64,000 bases of DNA from SAR202 cluster bacterium (GTDB lineage Bacteria; Chloroflexota; Dehalococcoidia; Lucifugimonadales; UBA826), in contig RQOP01000036.1 in the NCBI GenBank assembly GCA_008373095.1, forward strand, positions 12,725 through 76,724. Reading direction: 5' to 3'. Each line of letters starts with the position of its first letter. Positions within the stretch are counted from its first letter, which is position 1. A program made the position numbers and the translations under genes. The notes beneath the pieces were generated by a model, which did no database searches, had not been told where the DNA came from, and saw nothing but the letters and a program-made list of their open reading frames with translations. This document shows, piece after piece, positions 5,245 through 36,690 of the stretch.

Positions 5245-5994
5245 TTAATCGTCTTTCCAGAATCGCTCTTCAAGAAATTCATATCCGTCGACAGTTACTT
5301 TTTCCTTTACGTCCTCAATCATGCCTGGATGCCCACATGCGTAGATCATAGTGTCTTCGTTGGTTAAATTGAACTCGTCAAGTTTATCTTTGACTATGTT
5401 ATTCACCCTACCGGTATCTCCAGACCAGGTAGAATTTTTGGCTTCACCAGGACGGCTGATCGTTGGTACAAAGGTGACGAGAGAAGGATTTTCCTCACTT
5501 AAGTTTTCAAATTCCTTATCGTAAACAAATTCATCTGTATAACTGGCTCCTTCTAGTACGTAGAAATGATGGCCACTTTTACCATGTTCAATATAATCCC
5601 TGAGGAAACTGACATAGGGAACGACTCCTGTTACCGTCGAAACTAGAAATTGATTTTTCATCTCATCCTTGAACGTGAATATTCCTTTAGCACGAGGACG
5701 TATTGTTACTTTGTCCCCTTCATGAAGGTCCCATAGCATTGGTGTAAGTACACCGCCTTCAGCAACGGGGACTAGCTCTATGAAAAGTTCTATTAGTTCT
5801 TCATGAGGTGCGGATGCTATTGAATAGGCTCTTTCAACACCGTCATGCCCTATCGTGCAATATTGACCTGGTTTGAAGGTGTAGTCTTCAGGTTTTTCAA
5901 GCCACATTAAAGATAAATCTTCAGTTTGATCTTCTCTCCGAACTATTTTAATTTCTTGTAATGGCGCTTTTTGAGGGAATTTTCTAGTTGTCAT
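5245..5994 (-). CDS. Ferredoxin/flavodoxin-NADP+ reductase-like flavoprotein (Fpr type)
   Basis: 249-aa ORF, collinear with E. coli Fpr-type FNR. Motifs: FAD-binding RAYSIAS, a TGVVP NAD(P) segment and C-terminal CGHPGM. Lies 32 nt downstream of the NuoG-like gene on the same strand. Confidence 0.75.
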   Translation of the reverse strand: MTTRKFPQKAPLQEIKIVRREDQTEDLSLMWLEKPEDYTFKPGQYCTIGHDGVERAYSIASAPHEELIELFIELVPVAEGGVLTPMLWDLHEGDKVTIRPRAKGIFTFKDEMKNQFLVSTVTGVVPYVSFLRDYIEHGKSGHHFYVLEGASYTDEFVYDKEFENLSEENPSLVTFVPTISRPGEAKNSTWSGDTGRVNNIVKDKLDEFNLTNEDTMIYACGHPGMIEDVKEKVTVDGYEFLEERFWKDD

Positions 5995-6026
5995 ATTTAC
6001 TCCTGTCTTTCTCTATAGGGTCTCAC

Positions 6027-8714
6027 TTAAACTTTTTCGACCCTCACTTTACAAAGTCTGAGATTTTCAATTTTAGACATAGGATCTGGCTCTGTACTTT
6101 TATTAAGAGATTCTATTAAGGAACCAAATAGAGTGGTGGTGGCCACCATTCCTGAATGTAGACCATTGAGATGAGCATTGCCGATTAGTTCAAAGTTTTC
6201 CCCCAATATTTTAACTGCATCGCCCTCTGAAATACCTGCTTGCTCAGCATCCCCACTATTCATTTCAATGACTTCAGTTCTTGTTATGCTGTTTTGATCA
6301 TTCTCAGTCACAATGCCTGCGTCTCTATCAGCGTCGAACAAAACTCTGCCCGGCGCAAAGATTAGGGGATATTGTTCATTGACCTCAATTCCCTCATTTT
6401 GGGTGAATTCAAGAGGTGACAAAAGGTAGTCTTTTTGGGGTTCAATTTTTCTCATCTGTCCTGCCGTTCCAAGTTTTTCAACCCGAATATTTTTGTAGGA
6501 CTCTACTTCTCCAGTTATCTCTGTCAGAATCTCGTCAGAGGAAGAATAGGAAAGTTCATTTGATCCCAATCTTCCTGCCAGTTGGGACAATATTCTCCAA
6601 TCTTCATCCTCATCTCCGGCAGGTCCTATAGCTGCTCTGAGCCTGTGAACTCTCCCTTCCATATTTGTGTAAGTGCCTTTTTTTTCTGCGAAGACGGCTG
6701 AAGGTAGGACAACATCTGCCATTTTTGTTATGTCGCTTTCGAAACTTTCATGAACGATTAAAAGCTCTAAGCTTTTTATATTTTCCAAAAACTCCTCTCG
6801 ATCTGGGTTGTTGTGGAAAAGTTCATCACCAATCAGGTGCAAAGCTTTTACCTTTCCAGACGAACAGGCGTTTGATATTTCGTCTAGGTTTAAACCTGCA
6901 GCGTCCACAGGTCTGTGCCCAGGTAAAAAGTCGGGGACGCAGCCCATATCTTTTGACCCCTGCTGATTGGCACCACCATAGAGAGGGTATATACCACTAG
7001 ATTTGTTTCCTATATTTCCGGTAACAAGAGCTAGATCTACAAGTGATTTAACGGTGCGATCTACATGCTCTTCAGAGACAGTTTCCAAACCATACAGTAT
7101 TGATGAGGATTCTGATTTCCCAAATAATTGGGCTAACTCAACTATTTCTTCTTGAGGGATTCCAGTTTCAGCACTCACTTTTACTAGGTCAAAGTTCCAG
7201 AGAGAATTGCGAAATTCATCATAGCCCTCACAATGTTCTGTAGCGAAGTCGTGGTCTTCTAACGATTGGTCTAGGATGCTTCGAAGCATCCCACCAATAA
7301 GGTTGGATTCTGAATTAACAAGAGGGCGAATCCATTTTGTAGCATACCGAGTAAGTTCAGTTTCTCTTTGGTCGATGACTATTAGCTTTGCCCCTTTTGC
7401 TATGGCCTGTTTTATGGGTACTGAAGCAACGTTTTGTTCTTCTGTGATGTTGGCTGATACGAGGAGTATCACTTCTGAGTTCAGTAGATTCCATATGGTG
7501 TTGGTAGCAGAGTCGTCACCGATGGAACTTTGTAGAGCTGACACTAACTTAGGTCTTGAATTCGATGAAACATTTATGTTGTTCGACTTCATTACTCTTC
7601 GTACAAATTTTTGAGCGGTATAGTTATCCTCATTAGTTCCTTTTGACGAACTAATTAAGGCATAATCATCGCTTGTATAGCCGCTGAGCTTTTCAGACAG
7701 AAAATCCAAAGCTTCAGGCCAAGTAACTTCTTCGAGGTCTGAATTTCTACGAATCATAGGTTTTTTTAGTTTGTTTTTTTTGTTAACAAAGTCCAACCCG
7801 AATTTTCCTTTGAAACAAGCCATACCCATATTCGCTTCAGCTTGGCGGTTTGGTATAGATCGAACCACCTTATTTCTTTTATTGACATCGAGATCCAATT
7901 GACATCCGACTGGGCAATGAGGGCAGGTGGTTGAGACTTGTTCTACCGCTTTGTCCCATTTATATTCTCTCTCCACAATTGCTCCTGTGGGACAGACATC
8001 TATGCACGCGCCGCAGAATTCGCACCCGGATTCGAGCAGGGAAGTACCTGCTGCTGTACCGATTATGCTTCTACCAGAACGGTCTTTAAGGGTAATGGCA
8101 CTGTCTCCTCTGACCTCGTCACATGCCCTAACACATCTGGAGCATACTATGCATAAGTTCATGTCCATATCCCAAAAAGGATCTTTTACTTCTAACGGGA
8201 GATGCCGATTGTTATATGTGAGAGGAGTGGTAAGCTCCATTTCCATATACCTTACCGTGTCTTTTAATTCGCACCTTTCATTTTTGGGGCAGGTTACACA
8301 TCGGTCGTTAACTGAAACATGACGGAGACAAACATCAGTTGGCCCACAAAGGTCTATTCTGTGACAATTAAGGCAACCATGAGGATGTTCAGATATGAGC
8401 AGTTCCATAATTCCTTTTCGAAGCCCAACGGTATCCTCTGAATTTGTTTCGACTCTCATGCCTTCAGATACTGGGGTTGTGCACGAGGCTGGACTGCCAG
8501 GCAGGGCTCGATAGGTGCCGTCTGGAGTAGGTGATTCTGCCTTTACCACGCACATTCTGCAAGCCCCATAAGGTTTCATTCCCGGGTAGTAGCATAGATA
8601 GGGTATGTACATTCCATTATCCATCGCAGCTTGTATTATCATGCTGCCTGGCTCTGCTTGGACTTCTACTCCGTCTATTGTGAGGTTAACCTTATCTGAC
8701 ATATTACTCTCCAA
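6027..8714 (-). CDS. NuoG/FdsA-like Fe-S + molybdopterin-oxidoreductase-fold subunit (catalytic Cys/Sec absent)
   Basis: 895-aa ORF. N-terminal 2Fe-2S (CYYPGMKPYGACRMC), His-ligated cluster (HPHGCLNCH) and two ferredoxin 4Fe-4S motifs (CIVCSRCVRAC, CEFCGACIDVCP). Also a MopB 4Fe-4S (CPHCPVGC) and GTNEDNYTAQKF. The segment aligned to the FdhF CARV(U/C)H active site reads NVSSNSRPKL (7545..7574). Confidence 0.8.
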   Translation of the reverse strand: MESNMSDKVNLTIDGVEVQAEPGSMIIQAAMDNGMYIPYLCYYPGMKPYGACRMCVVKAESPTPDGTYRALPGSPASCTTPVSEGMRVETNSEDTVGLRKGIMELLISEHPHGCLNCHRIDLCGPTDVCLRHVSVNDRCVTCPKNERCELKDTVRYMEMELTTPLTYNNRHLPLEVKDPFWDMDMNLCIVCSRCVRACDEVRGDSAITLKDRSGRSIIGTAAGTSLLESGCEFCGACIDVCPTGAIVEREYKWDKAVEQVSTTCPHCPVGCQLDLDVNKRNKVVRSIPNRQAEANMGMACFKGKFGLDFVNKKNKLKKPMIRRNSDLEEVTWPEALDFLSEKLSGYTSDDYALISSSKGTNEDNYTAQKFVRRVMKSNNINVSSNSRPKLVSALQSSIGDDSATNTIWNLLNSEVILLVSANITEEQNVASVPIKQAIAKGAKLIVIDQRETELTRYATKWIRPLVNSESNLIGGMLRSILDQSLEDHDFATEHCEGYDEFRNSLWNFDLVKVSAETGIPQEEIVELAQLFGKSESSSILYGLETVSEEHVDRTVKSLVDLALVTGNIGNKSSGIYPLYGGANQQGSKDMGCVPDFLPGHRPVDAAGLNLDEISNACSSGKVKALHLIGDELFHNNPDREEFLENIKSLELLIVHESFESDITKMADVVLPSAVFAEKKGTYTNMEGRVHRLRAAIGPAGDEDEDWRILSQLAGRLGSNELSYSSSDEILTEITGEVESYKNIRVEKLGTAGQMRKIEPQKDYLLSPLEFTQNEGIEVNEQYPLIFAPGRVLFDADRDAGIVTENDQNSITRTEVIEMNSGDAEQAGISEGDAVKILGENFELIGNAHLNGLHSGMVATTTLFGSLIESLNKSTEPDPMSKIENLRLCKVRVEKV

Positions 8715-10440
8715 TTACGTGGTCAGTAGCATACGGTCGGGTATTTTTGGGAACGATTTTTGAACGATCACAACTGCCTGTGGGGCATCTGTCTTCTTCG
8801 ATATGCAATCTGAAATCTTCTTCAAAATGAGTGATAGCAGATCGGATGGGCCCAAAACCTAATTGGCCATGTCCGCAAAGTGAACCAGCTTCCATCGTGC
8901 CACCGACGCTTTTCATTAGATCCATATCACCTGGTTTACTTTCGTAATTAGCTATCCTTTCTACAATTTCTAGTAAATGTTCCATCCCCAATCTGCATGG
9001 AAAGCATTTTCCACAAGATTCAAATTGGCAGAAGGCGACCAGTACCCTAGTCAAATCGACAGCACAAACCCTATCGCTTCCAACAATTATTCCTCCAGAT
9101 CCAAATATAGCCCCAGCGCTTCTCATCTCGTCGAAATCTATATGAATGTCTTTGCTATCTGGGCCTAAGACTCCCCCTAATGGACCTCCTGTCTGCAGGA
9201 GTTTTAGTTGGCCGTCGTTACTCACACCACCTCCCAAGTCATCTATAACTTCTCCAAGGGTCAATCCCATAGGGACTTCATAGAGACCAGGCCTATTTAC
9301 ATCTCCACTTAAACACACTATTGCGGTACCTGTGCTTTGGTTGACGCCGATGGAAGAAAACCAGTCTGCTCCCCTTGAAATTATTTCAGGAGCATATGAC
9401 AGAGACTTGACATTGTTAATATTACTTGGTTTCCCCCAGACTCCAAATGCTGCAGGAAATGGCGGCCTGTATCTGGGCATAGATCTTTTACCTTCTACGG
9501 CTTCCATTAGAGCTGTTTCTTCCCCAGCAACATAAGATTCACCAGTTAGAGCCACCTCTATGTCGAAGCTAAAATCTGTTCCTAAGATATTTTCCCCTAG
9601 AAGACCTGATTCATAAGCTTGTTCAATAGCTTTTTCAGTTCTATTAATTGGTCCATCATGTCCATGCCTGATAAAAACTACCCCATTGGAGGCTCCAGTG
9701 GCATATCCAGCAATAGCGAGCCCTTCCAACAAGGTGTGTGGATCGCTCTCTAATATTCCTTTGTCATTATAGGCACCAGGATCTCCTTCTTCGCAATTGC
9801 ATAGGATGTATTTGGTTGGGCCTGGAGATCCGACTAAGAAACTCCATTTAACACCTGTTGGGAATGCAGCTCCCCCTCTTCCTCTAAGGCCTGAGTTTTT
9901 TACCTCGTCGATAACATCTGTGGGAGACATATTGGACAGAGCCTTATTTAGCCCGCTATACCCACCATTCGCTATGTATTGGTTTATGTCATATGGTGAC
10001 GTGTGTCCGGCATTTCTTAGTGCTATTCTGTTTTGTAGCCTCATGCCTGGCATTGATTCAAGAGAAGCCTCATCGTCTTGCGGACCTTCTTCTCCTAAAT
10101 ACCCGAAAACTTTTTCTTTTGGATATCCATCAGAAACCAAATACTCGTCAATTATTTGGCTAATATCTTCAGGTCCTACATTGTTGAAGAAAAGTCTTGA
10201 TTTACCCGGCTTTTTTATGTCTACAAGGGGCTCTGCATAACAAAGGCCTAGGCATCCAACTTCCTGTACATTGGCTTCTATTCCCTTTGTTTCCATGTAT
10301 TCTTTGAGGGTTTCCAGTACCCTGAAAGCACCAGCTGCGTGTCCGCACATGGCTGTGCCGATTCTAATCAAAGGGACTCTGCCATTGGTCATTTCATCCC
10401 ATTCAGTTTTGGCTTTAGAGGCAATTTCTTGGTAATTCAT
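8704..10440 (-). CDS. NuoF/HoxF/FdsB-like NAD(H)-binding FMN Fe-S subunit with N-terminal thioredoxin-like domain
   Basis: 578-aa ORF. Motifs: GLRGRGGAAFPTGVKW (FMN/NADH site) and ESCGKCFPCRLG (N3-type 4Fe-4S). The N-terminal ~100 aa carry Cys pairs, as in HydB/HndC-type subunits. Overlaps the NuoG-like start by 11 nt. Confidence 0.85.
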   Translation of the reverse strand: MNYQEIASKAKTEWDEMTNGRVPLIRIGTAMCGHAAGAFRVLETLKEYMETKGIEANVQEVGCLGLCYAEPLVDIKKPGKSRLFFNNVGPEDISQIIDEYLVSDGYPKEKVFGYLGEEGPQDDEASLESMPGMRLQNRIALRNAGHTSPYDINQYIANGGYSGLNKALSNMSPTDVIDEVKNSGLRGRGGAAFPTGVKWSFLVGSPGPTKYILCNCEEGDPGAYNDKGILESDPHTLLEGLAIAGYATGASNGVVFIRHGHDGPINRTEKAIEQAYESGLLGENILGTDFSFDIEVALTGESYVAGEETALMEAVEGKRSMPRYRPPFPAAFGVWGKPSNINNVKSLSYAPEIISRGADWFSSIGVNQSTGTAIVCLSGDVNRPGLYEVPMGLTLGEVIDDLGGGVSNDGQLKLLQTGGPLGGVLGPDSKDIHIDFDEMRSAGAIFGSGGIIVGSDRVCAVDLTRVLVAFCQFESCGKCFPCRLGMEHLLEIVERIANYESKPGDMDLMKSVGGTMEAGSLCGHGQLGFGPIRSAITHFEEDFRLHIEEDRCPTGSCDRSKIVPKNTRPYATDHVIGE

Positions 10441-13422: not shown

Positions 13423-15603
13423 CTATTTTCTGTAAATATCTGCGCCAAAATTTATTTTTGGGAAATCTTTCTTAGTATAAAGATATGCATCTTCACTTCC
13501 GATGCTTTCGCCGACACCTTTTCGGAATAACCAGTATTCAAGGTAGGTATTCCAATGCCTTGTATCCACTAATTTATTGATAAGACTTAATGTATTAAGG
13601 TCCCTGTATGTGTGTTCGGGAAACCACCATCTGTGAGGTATTCTAATGGGAGCAGTGTAATCCTTGGATAAAGCCCTATCTGCCGCGAGATGATTTGATG
13701 AATGGACGATCACCATTGCTGCTTGATTATGTGGGTTATATGACTCAGGATTTAGTTTAGGATACAGCACATTTTTATGGTTTCTCAGGTACCAGGACCA
13801 CGGCCAAGTGAATCCATTAGTTTGATCTATAACAAATAAGTCGCTATCCCCAGATTTGTCTAAAGAGTAATTTTCTTGAATAGTGTTGTGTAATAGATGT
13901 ACATCCGGTGAGGTCTGAGTATAAACTAGCATTTCAACCGGTATATCCGAATGCACATAGTTTGTATAAATGGTTGTCCTTATTGTTAGTAATAGGAAAA
14001 GAGTGGCAGCGCCAGCAAACAAAAAAATAAGTGCTCCGTTTTTCCCTAAATTCTTGTAATTTTTCACCGCGCATATAGAAGTTGAAAGAATACATAAAAT
14101 CATTGCTAAGGCGATGGTAATTCTTAATCCTTGCTCTAGCCCAGAAGAGTACTTTGAAACAAACAAAATTAAAGCGAAAACCAAAGCAGGTATTATAAAT
14201 ATAATAAATTGATACATGGTAGGTTTGCCCATTAAAAGGATCCTACTAACTAAATCACCTATAAATTTTCCACCAAGCACTATCATCGGCAATGCTATAT
14301 TCACTAGAAGCCATGGCATTTTTTCACTAGCAACGGTGTATATAAATAGCGTTGTTATCATCCAATACAGAAGGAACAGATTGAATTTTTCCCGGGACTT
14401 TATGTAATAAAAGGTCGCAAGGGTGGTAAAGATAGCTGGTAAATATTCGTAGATTGGGATAAGAAATAGATAATATTGTGTTGGTTGTCCTCCTCTTCCC
14501 TCACCTTGCTGTACTATCCAGTACCCGAGCGATTGCCATATTCCCGACTGAACGCCTCCAGTAATGTTTGTAAACATAGTGGTGTAGGCCATTAGCCATA
14601 TTGCATAAAAAATTAACGCGCATTTAAACCAACTTTTCCAATGCCATTTGTATCCCATATAGGCCGAGGTCATCAGTAATCCGATCACAATTAAAAAAGC
14701 CAGTACTTTCCCACCGTGTGACGGCATACCAATGTTAGTAGTTCCTTCTCCCGATGCTAAAACCATATTCGACCATTCTAAGAATATGGTGTTTTGAAAA
14801 ATACTTGCGAAAGCAGACCATTGGGGTAGAGTCAGTGAAATTAGTATGATCAGGAGGGTAAAGGGTCTGCTATACGGCTGGGTGTAAAAACAATCTTTTA
14901 TTGTTCTCGATATCTTCACTGCATAAAACCATGCAAAGTTTGGATAGGATAGGGATTTTGCCTCAGAATCAGAAATTGAGTTTTTAAACGCATCATAGAT
15001 AGTTAATGCAGTCAAATATAACCCTAGTGTTCCTACGACTAAATAAGCACTTTCTTTTGTTGAAAAACTTAATGCAAGAAGGGCAGATATAACGTAAAGA
15101 TATCTTTTGTGCCCATACAACAAATATTTCCATATGGCTAAGACAAGTCCAAGAGTAAATACAGCCATAAGAATATCGTTTCTGGCAAACCTGCTGAAGT
15201 AAACCATCGTAGGGGATATGGTCAATAGAATCGATACAGAGATGGCTCCATATCTCCCCAATAAATCTTTTATGAAAATAGGCAATATGACTAAAATGCT
15301 TCCAGCAATGACATAGAGAAGTCGGGAAGTTGTGTCTGTGTCCCCAAAAATGAAAAAAATTAATGATGTTAATTCCATCTGTAGTGGGCCGTGGAGCATG
15401 GGATTGTGTATAAGTCCCGATCCTTGGAATAATTCCCACGAATAATAGGCATGCAGACTCTCATCATGATGCATGGCCCTGCTCGCCAAATCATAGGACC
15501 TCAGAAAAATAGCGACGACAACGATGCTGCTATATATAGCCCATTCTAATCGTAATGGGTTTGGAAAGTGCCTAGATCTAGCGGTTTTTAAAGAATGTTT
15601 CAA
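13423..15603 (-). CDS. GT-C-like integral membrane protein, TIGR03663-like (distant PMT/ArnT similarity)
   Basis: 726-aa highly hydrophobic ORF. The N-terminal region carries the DE dipeptide and HGP tripeptide (HHDESLHAYYSW...NPMLHGPLQ) that I recall as the invariants of TIGR03663. Overlaps the upstream YYY gene by 4 nt. Confidence 0.7.
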   Translation of the reverse strand: MKHSLKTARSRHFPNPLRLEWAIYSSIVVVAIFLRSYDLASRAMHHDESLHAYYSWELFQGSGLIHNPMLHGPLQMELTSLIFFIFGDTDTTSRLLYVIAGSILVILPIFIKDLLGRYGAISVSILLTISPTMVYFSRFARNDILMAVFTLGLVLAIWKYLLYGHKRYLYVISALLALSFSTKESAYLVVGTLGLYLTALTIYDAFKNSISDSEAKSLSYPNFAWFYAVKISRTIKDCFYTQPYSRPFTLLIILISLTLPQWSAFASIFQNTIFLEWSNMVLASGEGTTNIGMPSHGGKVLAFLIVIGLLMTSAYMGYKWHWKSWFKCALIFYAIWLMAYTTMFTNITGGVQSGIWQSLGYWIVQQGEGRGGQPTQYYLFLIPIYEYLPAIFTTLATFYYIKSREKFNLFLLYWMITTLFIYTVASEKMPWLLVNIALPMIVLGGKFIGDLVSRILLMGKPTMYQFIIFIIPALVFALILFVSKYSSGLEQGLRITIALAMILCILSTSICAVKNYKNLGKNGALIFLFAGAATLFLLLTIRTTIYTNYVHSDIPVEMLVYTQTSPDVHLLHNTIQENYSLDKSGDSDLFVIDQTNGFTWPWSWYLRNHKNVLYPKLNPESYNPHNQAAMVIVHSSNHLAADRALSKDYTAPIRIPHRWWFPEHTYRDLNTLSLINKLVDTRHWNTYLEYWLFRKGVGESIGSEDAYLYTKKDFPKINFGADIYRK

Positions 15604-31978: not shown

Positions 31979-32016
31979 TGAAATATGCTGCACCTCAGGG
32001 AAGGCAGCATATTTTA
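31979..32016. other. Long perfect hairpin / inverted repeat in the glnA - dsbA-like divergent region
   Basis: 11-bp perfect arms AAATATGCTGC (31981..31991) and GCAGCATATTT (32004..32014) with a 12-nt loop, extendable by a G-U and a U-A pair. Neither flanking gene terminates here. Confidence 0.3.
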
Positions 32017-32115
32017 CGGGCGATTACATCAACCTATTTTATATAGGACGGCTTATCCTCATTTATATTTTACGGTAAACTAAGTTAACTGTACTTATAA
32101 TGACGGGAGATTCAC

Positions 32116-32745
32116 ATGGATAAGATGGAATTTGACGTATTTTTCGATTTTGCTTGACCTTTTGTCTACAATGCGGCCGTGTGGCTGGATAAAGTGAAAG
32201 AACATTACGGTGAAGATCTTCAACTTAATTGGAGAAACTTTTCGCTGCAGCAAATAAATGCAAAAGATCCTGGAGATTGGCGTGTCTGGCAGGAAGAGGA
32301 CTATAGCACGACTAGGTCGCTAATGGCCTCAATAGCAGGGGAGGCAGCGAAAAGACAGGGCCCCGAGTCATTTAATAAATTCTTCTTGGCTCTTCTTACA
32401 GCGAGACATGGCGGGGATAGGGCACCATTGAATGATGAATCTTTGTTTGTTCAAATAGCGGAAGAATGTGGATTGGATGTCGAGAAATTTAAATCTGATA
32501 TGAAAGATACTGAACTTGTTGACATAATTGCAAAGGATCACACCGAGGCTACTGAGGTTCATGGAGCCTTTGGAACGCCCACCTTTATTTTTGACAATGG
32601 TCAGTCCGCCTATTTGAAAACATTTATTCCTCCTGAAGAGGAATCGGTTGATGCATTTAAATATTTTCTAGGCTTGTTTGAAAATAGGTCTTACATAGGC
32701 GAGGTAAAGCGACCTCAGCCACCATGGCCTAAAGGCGCAGTATAA
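32116..32745 (+). CDS. DsbA-like thiol:disulfide oxidoreductase; candidate selenoprotein with in-frame TGA at 32155..32157 (conservative call: 32179..32745 from GTG)
   Basis: ATG 32116 with GGGAGA SD (32105..32110) is in frame with the 188-aa ORF. Translation reads MDKMEFDVFFDFA-TGA-PFVYNAAVWLDKV... The TGA occupies the position of the nucleophilic Cys of the DsbA/FrnE-type FDFxCPFxY motif. The downstream part has the cis-Pro loop FGTPTFIF. Confidence 0.55.
32174..32187 (+). promoter_or_regulatory. Candidate bacterial SECIS apical hairpin
   Basis: CGGCC-GUGU-GGCUG forms a 5-bp stem (one G-U pair) with a 4-nt G/U loop beginning 22 nt after the UGA. A possible lower stem is CUUUU (32159..32163) / GAAAG (32196..32200). 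Confidence 0.35.
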
Positions 32746-32765: not shown

Positions 32766-33431
32766 ATGTTTCTAAATATTGAAAATAGGTTTGATGATCA
32801 AAGTCTATTCAGGCTGAGCATGACTCATTCCTCATGGGTTAATGAAGCTAAGGATTTGGCTATTCAATCCAATGAGCGACTTGAGTTTTTGGGAGATGCA
32901 GTTCTGGACGCCGTGGTAGGGCAATATTTGTATACTCAATATCCTAATCACTCTGAAGGGGATTTGACGAAATTTAGATCGCATATTGTCAGTGGATCCG
33001 CGCTATCAGAGGTAGGGAGAATGTTGGGCATAGGTCAATATCTCGTATTGGGAAAAGGTGAAGAAGCTTCTGGGGGGCGGGATAAGGATTCAAATTTGGC
33101 TAACGCCTATGAGGCTGTGGTAGGAGCTTTATTTATTGATGGTGGGTTTGATGTCGCAAAAGATTTTATCTTTGAAAGTATGGATATAAAAAGCAAAAGT
33201 GCAGTATTAGTTAGCGGCGAGAACGATTCAAAAACGCAATTGCAAATGGCTGTCCAGGCCAAATGTGCCGTGGCACCGCATTATAGGGTTATTTCTAAAG
33301 ATGGCCCCGATCATAAACCGACGTTTGTAGTTGAAGTTTTGATCGGCGAAAAGGTTATAACGACCGGAAAGGGAACTAGTAGAAATAGAGCCGAAATGGA
33401 AGCAGCATCAAGAGCTTTGGAGATGTTGTGA
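32766..33431 (+). CDS. rnc: Ribonuclease III
   Basis: 221-aa ORF. RNase III signature ERLEFLGDAVLD and a C-terminal dsRBD (KTQLQ...GPDHKPTFVVEV...GKGTSRNRAEMEAA). Ends in TGA. Confidence 0.95.
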   Translation: MFLNIENRFDDQSLFRLSMTHSSWVNEAKDLAIQSNERLEFLGDAVLDAVVGQYLYTQYPNHSEGDLTKFRSHIVSGSALSEVGRMLGIGQYLVLGKGEEASGGRDKDSNLANAYEAVVGALFIDGGFDVAKDFIFESMDIKSKSAVLVSGENDSKTQLQMAVQAKCAVAPHYRVISKDGPDHKPTFVVEVLIGEKVITTGKGTSRNRAEMEAASRALEML

Positions 33432-35322: not shown

Positions 35323-36690
35323 ATGATTGATTTACTATCTATTGCTCGAACAGAGGCGGGCGGAGGTGATTTACTTGGCCTACTTTCCAGTATGTTCGAA
35401 TCTTCGGATGTAAGACCTGAAGGCTATTCCGACGCAGTAGTTTGGCAAGGGGGAAATCACAACGGCAATCTGAATCCAGTGGCGCATTCTTTGACTGACG
35501 CCTATGCGTTATTAGGAACTATAGCAGCAGCAGATATATTGGGACTTCCTTTTTATGCAGTTCCGATGTGGTCACAATACAGGCATGATACCAAACTAGA
35601 GTCTTTGGCTTGGTTCGGTAATATGCCATGTACGTCTATCAAATGGTCTACTGCGGGAGATGCCTATGTAAATGATGGCAGCGGCGGTCGGGTTGTTGTA
35701 ATGGGGAAATCAGGTAATGCTCCTTTGAGAACCCAAGCAGGAGTTTACTGCAACGTAAGGCCATACGGACCTATTACTGTAGTGAGATGTATGCCCTGTC
35801 TTCCTTACTCTCAAGACAAAGATAAGTTTGAAGTGAATGAATTGGGTATTGTACATTCAGAAATGAATACTCCGGGAGTTCAAATGGCCTACGCTAATAG
35901 GTTATTCCTTAAGATGGTAAATGATAGCGGGCAGTTAGGTCGTGTTGCTATGAAACCTACTCAGGCTATGGAAGATGGAATCAATGCCGGACTACATTCA
36001 TGGTTATTAAAAGGCACCAAATTTGAGGTTGGTAGACGGTATGCGGTAGATCCGTACGAAGAACACAAAGATCGTATAGATAAGATAGCTTCACTTCTGC
36101 CGTCCGATTTTAAGGACGGAATGGAAAATTGGGGAGGCCGAATTGAACAACACATTTCAGATACCAACTATGGATTACTAATTTGGGATCTTATCGAGCA
36201 AAGGGATACGATAGTCCTTGCAACCGATCTGGATGGCGACAGATTAACAGACTTATTAGCTGATATTTCCGACCCTTTGCGTGCTTTCGGTGACAAAGTG
36301 GTTCAGCACGTAGGTAAAGATGTAAGCATGTGGGATGCGTGGTCTGAAATGGGGTACACCACCGGCAATGGAAGGGATATGACATCAGTTATGCATAGGA
36401 TGGATGGCCCCCCAATACATGAACAGACTCTCGGGTCGGCAGATGCTATGTTGCTACGATTGCTGGATGGGGACGAATCTATGGGAGGAACCAAGAGACC
36501 ATACGATCCACGAATACACTTTGTGTTGATACGTGATGCATATTTAGATGCCAATCCGGGTAATACGGAACTGAAGGAGTGGTTAGATAATGCGCTTGAA
36601 ATTTTCGACGGTATTTATGGAGAGAACAGACCTGGATTCCTTGAAGGTTATAAAGCCTTAAAGGAAGGGATTACCCCTTGGGGGTCCTAA
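35323..36690 (+). CDS. Hypothetical protein (455 aa), no family recognised
   Basis: Long uninterrupted ORF with SD AAAGAGG 8 nt upstream of the ATG. No TM segments or signal peptide are apparent, and I recognise no motif. Confidence 0.6.
   Translation: MIDLLSIARTEAGGGDLLGLLSSMFESSDVRPEGYSDAVVWQGGNHNGNLNPVAHSLTDAYALLGTIAAADILGLPFYAVPMWSQYRHDTKLESLAWFGNMPCTSIKWSTAGDAYVNDGSGGRVVVMGKSGNAPLRTQAGVYCNVRPYGPITVVRCMPCLPYSQDKDKFEVNELGIVHSEMNTPGVQMAYANRLFLKMVNDSGQLGRVAMKPTQAMEDGINAGLHSWLLKGTKFEVGRRYAVDPYEEHKDRIDKIASLLPSDFKDGMENWGGRIEQHISDTNYGLLIWDLIEQRDTIVLATDLDGDRLTDLLADISDPLRAFGDKVVQHVGKDVSMWDAWSEMGYTTGNGRDMTSVMHRMDGPPIHEQTLGSADAMLLRLLDGDESMGGTKRPYDPRIHFVLIRDAYLDANPGNTELKEWLDNALEIFDGIYGENRPGFLEGYKALKEGITPWGS

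Follow-up and report, generated by a model that had tools for sequence, protein, structure and literature searches.

The window analysed here is a 64-kb stretch (64,000 nt) of a SAR202 cluster bacterium (GCA_008373095.1, RQOP01000036.1), to whose positions all coordinates refer, and it carries on its forward strand a gene for a predicted DsbA-like selenoprotein. Frame translation shows that a TGA at 32155-32157 (+) is the sole stop between an ATG at 32116-32118 and a TAA at 32743-32745, and an SD-like (Shine-Dalgarno-like) GGGAGA read from the sequence (32105..32110, +) lies 5 nt upstream of the ATG. The full coding sequence (32116..32745, +) spans 209 residues with selenocysteine (Sec) at position 14, the UGA standing in a UGA-C context and being replaced by a Cys codon in some homologues. 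The protein opens MDKMEFDVFFDFAU, giving a conceptual N-terminus of MDKMEFDVFFDFA-[TGA]-PFVYNAAVWLD. The open reading frame (ORF) listing begins the gene at GTG 32179 and thus yields 188 aa, but this start (32179..32181, +) is spurious and corresponds to Val22, inside the loop of a hairpin that follows the UGA. The original prediction, made from the letters alone, had placed the GGGAGA, the ATG, the TGA, the GTG and a downstream FGTPTFIF motif correctly to the base, as re-reading of the sequence showed.

It had also been proposed that the GTG start omits the N-terminus of the protein, and the domain match agrees. The protein matches both PF01323 (DSBA) and PF13743 in Pfam. Without the 21-residue extension the DSBA score is 39.4 bits (cut-off 25.6) over profile positions 94-175 of 191, whereas with it (Cys written for the TGA) the score rises to 62.0 bits over positions 3-175. 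The start of the match thus moves from profile position 94 to 3, which shows that the extension supplies the N-terminal stretch of the domain that the shorter frame lacks; the codons upstream of the TGA are conserved as well. Moreover, the 42 window ORFs of at least 200 aa end in TAA (19), TAG (15) or TGA (8). TGA is therefore a genuine stop in this genome, as had been predicted, and the genetic code is not reassigned.

Related sequences were collected at the protein and DNA levels. A protein search returned 356 homologues, of which the best 120 were inspected. Only 9 of these cover the full query, with Cys in the TGA column in 7 (as in FDFACPFVYNAAVWLD) and Trp in 2 (P0011 and P0012). The DNA of P0012 (L086:132-758) reads TGA at the aligned codon although the protein record shows Trp, and thus the Trp in this pair is attributable to gene calling under genetic code 4. 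Relatives were further searched in one genome per GTDB species; at least 471 were found and the best 80 loci were analysed. They share 50-94% identity, and every one is from a Dehalococcoidia, SAR202 or other Chloroflexota genome, in nearly all cases a metagenome-assembled genome (MAG) and often at chromosome level. In most of these loci, tblastn matched residues 1-209 straight across the TGA. The aligned codon is TGA in 79 copies, made up of 77/80 loci, a second copy in L043 and the window itself, and it is a Cys codon in 7: TGT in L038, L040 and L042, and TGC, read from the contigs, in L081, L082 and L087, which have SAR202-like synteny, and in L083, a Krumholzibacteria MAG. Non-TGA orthologues always carry Cys here, never Trp or Gly. 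Looking for Cys or TGA at this position and for conservation of the 13 preceding residues had been suggested as a check, and both were found.

The flanks of the codon show the same constraint. Across the 79 TGA copies the Asp at -3 is invariant while its codon alternates between GAC and GAT, and positions -2/-1, where synonymous codons likewise vary, are Tyr-Ala in most copies and Phe-Ala in the window. On the 3′ side P+1, V+3 and the peptide NAAVWLD are conserved with varying synonymous sites. An ATG lies 10-16 codons upstream of the TGA in 74/79 copies, most commonly at 13, and in 75/79 the in-frame start within this range is preceded by a GGAG, GAGG, AGGA or GGGA motif. The pattern of substitution indicates that the 13 codons before the TGA evolve as coding sequence. 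At 95.7% nucleotide identity over 633 nt, the TGC form L081 and the TGA form L054 first differ at the third base of codon 14, and by this comparison L081 is clearly a recent Sec-to-Cys conversion.

Immediately downstream of the UGA lies a hairpin of the selenocysteine insertion sequence (SECIS) type (32171..32190, +). Its core consists of a CGGCC/GGCUG stem (32174-78 with 32183-87) closed by a GUGU loop (32179-82), with the outer pairs A32171-U32190 and U32172-A32189 flanking a G.G mismatch. The hairpin occupies the region 16-35 nt 3′ of the UGA, with the loop at 22-25 nt, and folds at -9.1 kcal/mol over 24 nt (32170-32193) and at -11.8 kcal/mol over 48 nt. A published bacterial SECIS model specifies a loop of 3-9 nt beginning with G followed by G or U, an upper stem of 4-16 bp, 16-37 nt from UGA to loop and an energy of -7.5 kcal/mol or lower (PMC13188914). 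With its 4-nt loop starting G-U, 5-bp stem, 21-nt spacing and -9.1 kcal/mol, the window hairpin fits this model. The core had been predicted at 32174..32187 and was confirmed. An outer CUUUU/GAAAG pairing had been predicted as well; it does form in the window's own minimum-energy fold but is not conserved among the orthologues, where a search for a conserved lower stem found none shared, single sequences forming lower stems of their own.

Comparative and codon-level controls were used in place of single-sequence folding to assess this structure. Across the 79 TGA forms, most degenerate positions between codons -12 and +24 show a synonymous-codon entropy of 0.7-2.4 bit, but codons +5 to +11 show only 0.11-0.80. 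These seven codons read AAT GCA/GCG GCC GTG TGG CTG GAT in ~70-76 of the 79, and the low-entropy block coincides exactly with the hairpin plus its two outer pairs. Among the 1536 synonymous encodings of N-A-A-V-W-L-D, weighted by codon usage, only 0.44% reach the stability of the observed -9.1 kcal/mol; the mean is -3.0. The window hairpin is built from rare GC-rich codons of an AT-rich genome, namely GCG (11% of Ala), GTG (19% of Val) and CTG (12% of Leu). Mean hairpin energy is -9.3 kcal/mol in the Sec forms (weakest -5.9) as against -4.8 kcal/mol in the Cys forms. Four Cys forms (L038, L040, L042 and L083) keep the peptide NAAVWLD or NTAVWLD (NAAIWLD in L040) in codons that destroy the stem; the 24-nt energies of forms without the stem are -0.3 to -2.6 kcal/mol, except for L083, which reaches -7.6 with a different, shifted fold. 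Conversely, the Sec forms L073:10040 and L078:10040 encode AAVLLEAAK in place of AAVWLDxVK, and at an unchanged distance from the UGA they form a different stem of 6 perfect pairs, CGCCGC/GCGGCG, which appears to be an alternative SECIS solution. In L064, L076 and L080, where Asn/Asp has become Gln/Ser, the outer U-A pair is replaced by G-C in a compensatory change and the G.G mismatch by G-U, and in L079 a G-C pair closes the mismatch. Taken together, these comparisons indicate that the hairpin is under selection at the nucleotide level. The same hairpin sequence was sought elsewhere in the loci, and no other gene has it at SECIS distance from an in-frame TGA. In one Chloroflexota MAG (L043) the gene is present as two tandem copies, at 7634 and 8593 and ~960 nt apart, both with the TGA and the same hairpin.

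The position of the UGA within the fold was examined with an AlphaFold2 model of a Cys orthologue (P0027) that is 57% identical to the window protein. The model has a pLDDT (predicted local distance difference test) of 90.6 and the order beta1-alpha1-beta2, helical insert, T-P-beta3-beta4-alpha, and its top PDB matches are all DsbA-like, the best being DR2335 (TM-score 0.79), followed by FrnE, SCO1869, Rv2466c, glutathione S-transferase (GST) kappa and 2-hydroxychromene-2-carboxylate (HCCA) isomerase. In SCO1869 (DIACPWCY) the counterpart of Sec14 is the first Cys of CPWC, and in the single-Cys DR2335 it is Cys24. Both alignments place the TGA at the nucleophilic Cys of DsbA/FrnE proteins, as had been predicted. 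The second Cys of CPWC corresponds to Val17. The motif is U-P-[FWY]-V across the family, D-F-A-U-P-F-V in the window, and Val occupies +3 in 79/79 Sec forms; the protein thus lacks the C-x-x-C or U-x-x-C with resolving Cys that is the classical mark of DsbA and FrnE. With Val at the resolving position, the centre has a single redox nucleophile and would form no intramolecular selenenyl-sulfide, in line with the single-Sec U-P-F-V centre of the original prediction. The cis-Pro loop FGTPTFIF (residues 152-159, 32569..32592, +) contains Thr154-Pro155, whose equivalent in the model stands directly before strand E155-158. G150, F152, G153, P155 and T156 are invariant in the homologue alignments, and His142 and Thr154-Pro155 invariant or nearly so. 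A nearly invariant C-terminal tail, KRPQPPWPKGAV (32707..32742, +), was found in an alignment of 54 sequences (~50-90% identity), in which K198, P200, Q201, P202, P203, W204, P205 and G207 are invariant. The tail KRPQPPWPKGA is of low confidence in the model, with a pLDDT of 62 for residues 191-200 and 51 for 201-208. No signal peptide is apparent by inspection; strand beta-1 begins near residue 5, and the protein is therefore probably cytoplasmic.

We therefore read the in-frame TGA, with a probability of roughly 0.9, as a Sec codon at the active site of a DsbA-like, probably cytoplasmic redox protein of 209 residues. Within the gene at 32116-32745, selection maintains both the UGA at the catalytic position and a hairpin with the geometry of a SECIS. 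The orthologue codons, the selection on the hairpin and the alignment of Sec with Cys in the active site all support the selenoprotein first suggested for this locus. We further infer the recruitment of SelB, the cytoplasmic location and the chemistry. In bacterial Sec insertion, SelB with GTP and Sec-tRNA(Sec) binds the apical hairpin and brings Sec to the UGA. Here, translation would begin at ATG 32116, and the hairpin would recruit a SelB-type elongation factor with Sec-tRNA(Sec) at UGA 32155, such that Sec is inserted and termination avoided. Sec14 would sit at the N-terminus of helix alpha-1, facing the Thr154-cis-Pro155 loop. Its selenol would most likely attack a disulfide, thiolated or oxidised substrate to give a mixed selenenyl-sulfide which, given the missing resolving Cys and the nature of the fold relatives, would be resolved by an external thiol, either a low-molecular-weight thiol or a glutaredoxin/thioredoxin-type partner. 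Such a mechanism would be that of a monothiol-type reductase or thiol-transferase, not DsbA-style disulfide donation, and would resemble the chemistry of monothiol glutaredoxins, Cys-type glutathione transferases and Rv2466c. The Cys homologue of the Krumholzibacteria MAG has glutaredoxin and AhpC/Prx as neighbours, which by analogy fits a thiol-redox role. It is also conceivable, though doubtful, that this Sec form is nearly a core gene of marine SAR202/Dehalococcoidia, kept beside rnc and with an invariant tail, and catalyses a reaction new to DsbA-fold enzymes instead of generic thiol-disulfide exchange; one example may be a selenol-dependent reduction or isomerisation with a low-molecular-weight thiol.

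Several observations weigh against a Sec codon. Searches of the 64-kb window and of 1.57 Mb of related loci revealed no selA, selB, selD or tRNA-Sec. Three Cys forms with TGC (L081:916, L082:2040 and L087:3040) retain the exact CAGCC-GUGU-GGCUG hairpin; for two of these, L082 and L087, protein identity to the closest Sec form in the set is only 64-67%, and any conversion there need not be recent. Remnant SECIS structures after Sec-to-Cys conversion are documented (PMC1794560); the hairpin in the three forms fits such a remnant but might have another role. RNAalifold and pair counting over the 79 sequences recovered the stem, but its near-invariance leaves only weak covariation, with one pair doubly changed, in 3 sequences. 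The single-sequence fold z-score is only -0.94 (66 nt, 32150-32215).

Other explanations of the locus were weighed against the same data. Starting at GTG 32179, the gene would give a 188-residue DsbA-like protein without a redox centre, the upstream frame being untranslated or coding for a 13-residue peptide. Mechanical ORF calling arrives at this start, and orthologues in GenBank and JGI are annotated as 188-191 aa 'DsbA family protein'. However, such a product would lack strand beta-1 and the beginning of helix alpha-1, and would match Pfam DSBA only from position 94; no SD motif precedes the GTG, which is the conserved Val codon of the hairpin loop; the pre-TGA codons, the start codon and the SD-like motif are conserved down to ~50% identity; and Cys-form orthologues are annotated full-length. 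A pseudogene, or a TGA arising from sequencing or assembly error, would be expected to look like a lone in-frame stop in any one sequence, yet the same codon recurs in 78 further copies from independent assemblies, including long-read chromosome-level MAGs. Moreover, there is no other disruption, both flanks are under purifying selection and, at 50-94% identity, the loci are not copies of one sequence. Neither a pseudogene or sequencing error nor a start at GTG 32179 is compatible with the comparative codon and frame data; we leave the shortened protein a very slim chance and a pseudogene or error a negligible one.

It is highly improbable that the amino acid inserted at the UGA is another than Sec. 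The codon could be read as Trp or Gly through a code change or near-cognate read-through, and some pipelines do give Trp where the DNA has TGA (P0011/P0012, code 4), but TGA terminates 8 of the 42 long window ORFs, and every orthologue without TGA has Cys at what is the site of the redox nucleophile. SelB-like Cys-recoding systems exist, and insertion of Cys by a tRNA-Sec-like tRNA(Cys) with a SelB-like factor would need the hairpin too. Against this, Dehalococcoidia MAGs have been recorded with the Sec biosynthetic pathway and large selenoproteomes (PMC13326102). We also think it hardly probable that the 21-nt block is conserved for a reason other than Sec, such as a regulatory or RNase III-related structure for rnc. 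The three Cys forms that keep the hairpin, and rnc as the conserved downstream neighbour, would suit such a role; however, a stem of 5-7 bp is too short for a typical RNase III substrate. The hairpin also lies at the canonical SECIS distance from the UGA with a canonical G-U loop start, it is absent from four Cys forms, and remnants in Cys homologues have precedent (PMC1794560).

The search for the Sec machinery comprised several parts. E. coli SelA, SelB and SelD sequences, serving as probes only, were run by tblastn against the window and the 1.57 Mb of loci, and gave only a SelA-like match, in L016. This was rejected as selA, as it belongs to the NCBIfam DgaE family and scores 47.9 bits compared with a selA cut-off of 267.9. 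Rfam and ARAGORN found nothing on the window, and none of its 46 long ORFs is selenium-related. A 381-aa SelA-related pyridoxal phosphate (PLP) enzyme of the DgaE family lies 4-5 kb from the selenoprotein gene in L010, L015, L016 (14053-15198, -) and L056. Two Dehalococcoidia MAGs, with 49 and 46, are in the top ten for selenoprotein genes (PMC13326102), and their names follow the UBA and the UUID style, respectively or in reverse, that also occur among the present loci. The only SAR202 single-cell genome examined in 2016 lacked the Sec trait (PMC5029168 supplement). Scanning the window for further TGA-interrupted ORFs gave no other convincing gene, and an all-against-all Sec/Cys search across all loci returned this gene only, amid noise from off-frame conservation.

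This kind of selenoprotein is already known from ocean metagenomes, and the original prediction had rightly pointed to marine DsbA-like selenoproteins. The Sargasso Sea data of 2005 contained DsbA-like selenoproteins with UxxC (PMC1088965), and the Global Ocean Sampling (GOS) survey of 2008 listed 'DsbA 3' (pfam01323, UxxV), counting 5 sequences with Sec and 72 homologues with Cys (PMC2398784, Table 2). The protein described here resembles 'DsbA 3' in being marine, belonging to PF01323 and having U-x-x-V (U-P-F-V); it differs in that 5 GOS reads contrast with a Sec form that is the norm (77/80 loci). A 2026 catalogue describes 'DsbA-like protein form 2' with PF01323 and DxxUP, for example MDP6049977.1 (PMC13188914). 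Compared by description only, this shares PF01323, D-x-x-U-P (D-F-A-U-P here) and the absence of UxxC. By domain and motif, the family is probably the same as these two entries. Form 1, or the FrnE type (COG2761), is of the same superfamily and fold, likewise replaces the N-terminal nucleophilic Cys with Sec and has its SECIS directly downstream in the coding region, but it retains the resolving Cys (UxxC) where Val stands here.

Among proteins of known structure, DR2335 of Deinococcus radiodurans (PDB 7DK9; C24S mutant 7DKA) is the best sequence match (E = 7.5e-16, residues 3-202). It resembles the window protein in being predicted to be cytoplasmic, in having a single nucleophile at the Sec position (CPYA) and in sharing FGTPTF and R-R-P-x-P, but it has Cys rather than Sec, ~25% identity and extra insertions, and its C-terminal tail has only R-R-P-x-P as opposed to KRPQPPWPKGA. 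A review reports no functional data for it (PMC8945050). Rv2466c (a mycothiol-dependent reductase), GST kappa and HCCA isomerase share the DsbA-like fold with a helical insertion, at query-normalised TM-scores of 0.65-0.72 for Rv2466c and 0.60-0.65 for the other two, and are cytoplasmic enzymes working with a low-molecular-weight thiol. The Rv2466c-like Pfam score of 25.5 bits is below the cut-off of 27, giving no membership at sequence level. Rv2466c has CPWC, and GST kappa has Ser at the equivalent position.

Public records mostly miss the active site. About 110 of the best 120 database homologues are 185-195 aa long and start at Val22 ('MWLD...') or at a nearby internal codon, among them the GenBank 'DsbA family protein' entries MDC0035679.1 and MCH8185924.1, and two further protein clusters show Trp in place of Sec. 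The NCBI pipeline truncates the gene because NCBIfam lacks a model specific to this protein. Functional or structural inference from truncated SAR202 records thus loses the active site. In the literature compared we did not meet the Sec form as the rule in the SAR202/Dehalococcoidia genomes retrieved (77/80 loci), the SECIS almost invariant at the nucleotide level, the tight linkage to rnc or the near-universal truncation in public records. The gene adds a well-conserved example to the evidence of heavy Sec use by marine Dehalococcoidia, with several Sec-to-Cys switches seen, some with remnant SECIS, and the use of Sec marks this residue as catalytic in the DR2335-like family. Moreover, the defined SECIS CAGCC-GUGU-GGCUG, 21 nt after the UGA, could seed searches for other SAR202 selenoproteins.

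The rnc gene for RNase III (32766..33431, +; Pfam Ribonucleas_3_3, Ribonuclease_3 and dsrm) begins 20 nt downstream on the same strand and is probably co-transcribed with the selenoprotein gene. Of the 60 loci where rnc was matched, 58 have it within ~1 kb 3′ of the TGA on the same strand, and it also adjoins the Cys forms L081, L082 and L087. Upstream, on the opposite strand, are the nitrogen assimilation genes glnA, gltB and gltD; rnc is followed by a thiamine diphosphate (ThDP) enzyme, a 455-aa ORF, serine hydroxymethyltransferase (SHMT, opposite strand), a PLP enzyme and folE. A perfect 11-bp inverted repeat (31981-32014), AAATATGCTGC / GCAGCATATTT, whose arms are 12 nt apart, lies in the intergenic region that separates the divergent glnA and selenoprotein genes and is followed by a T-rich run; the repeat could be terminator-like or operator-like, and Rfam returned nothing at this position. 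Further away, a cluster at 5245-10440 (-) resembles an NAD-dependent formate dehydrogenase and encodes a NuoF-like protein (578 aa), a Fer2/NuoG-like plus molybdopterin subunit (895 aa) and an NAD-binding protein (249 aa). The 895-aa subunit scores 417 bits to TIGR01591 (Fdh-alpha), below the cut-off of 666, and its ORF is uninterrupted and thus not a Sec form. Two ORFs, at 35323-36690 (+, 455 aa) and 13423-15603 (-, 726 aa), gave no Pfam match at 1e-5 and 1e-8; the former has no NCBIfam match either, and its homologues occur in only 4 of the related loci.

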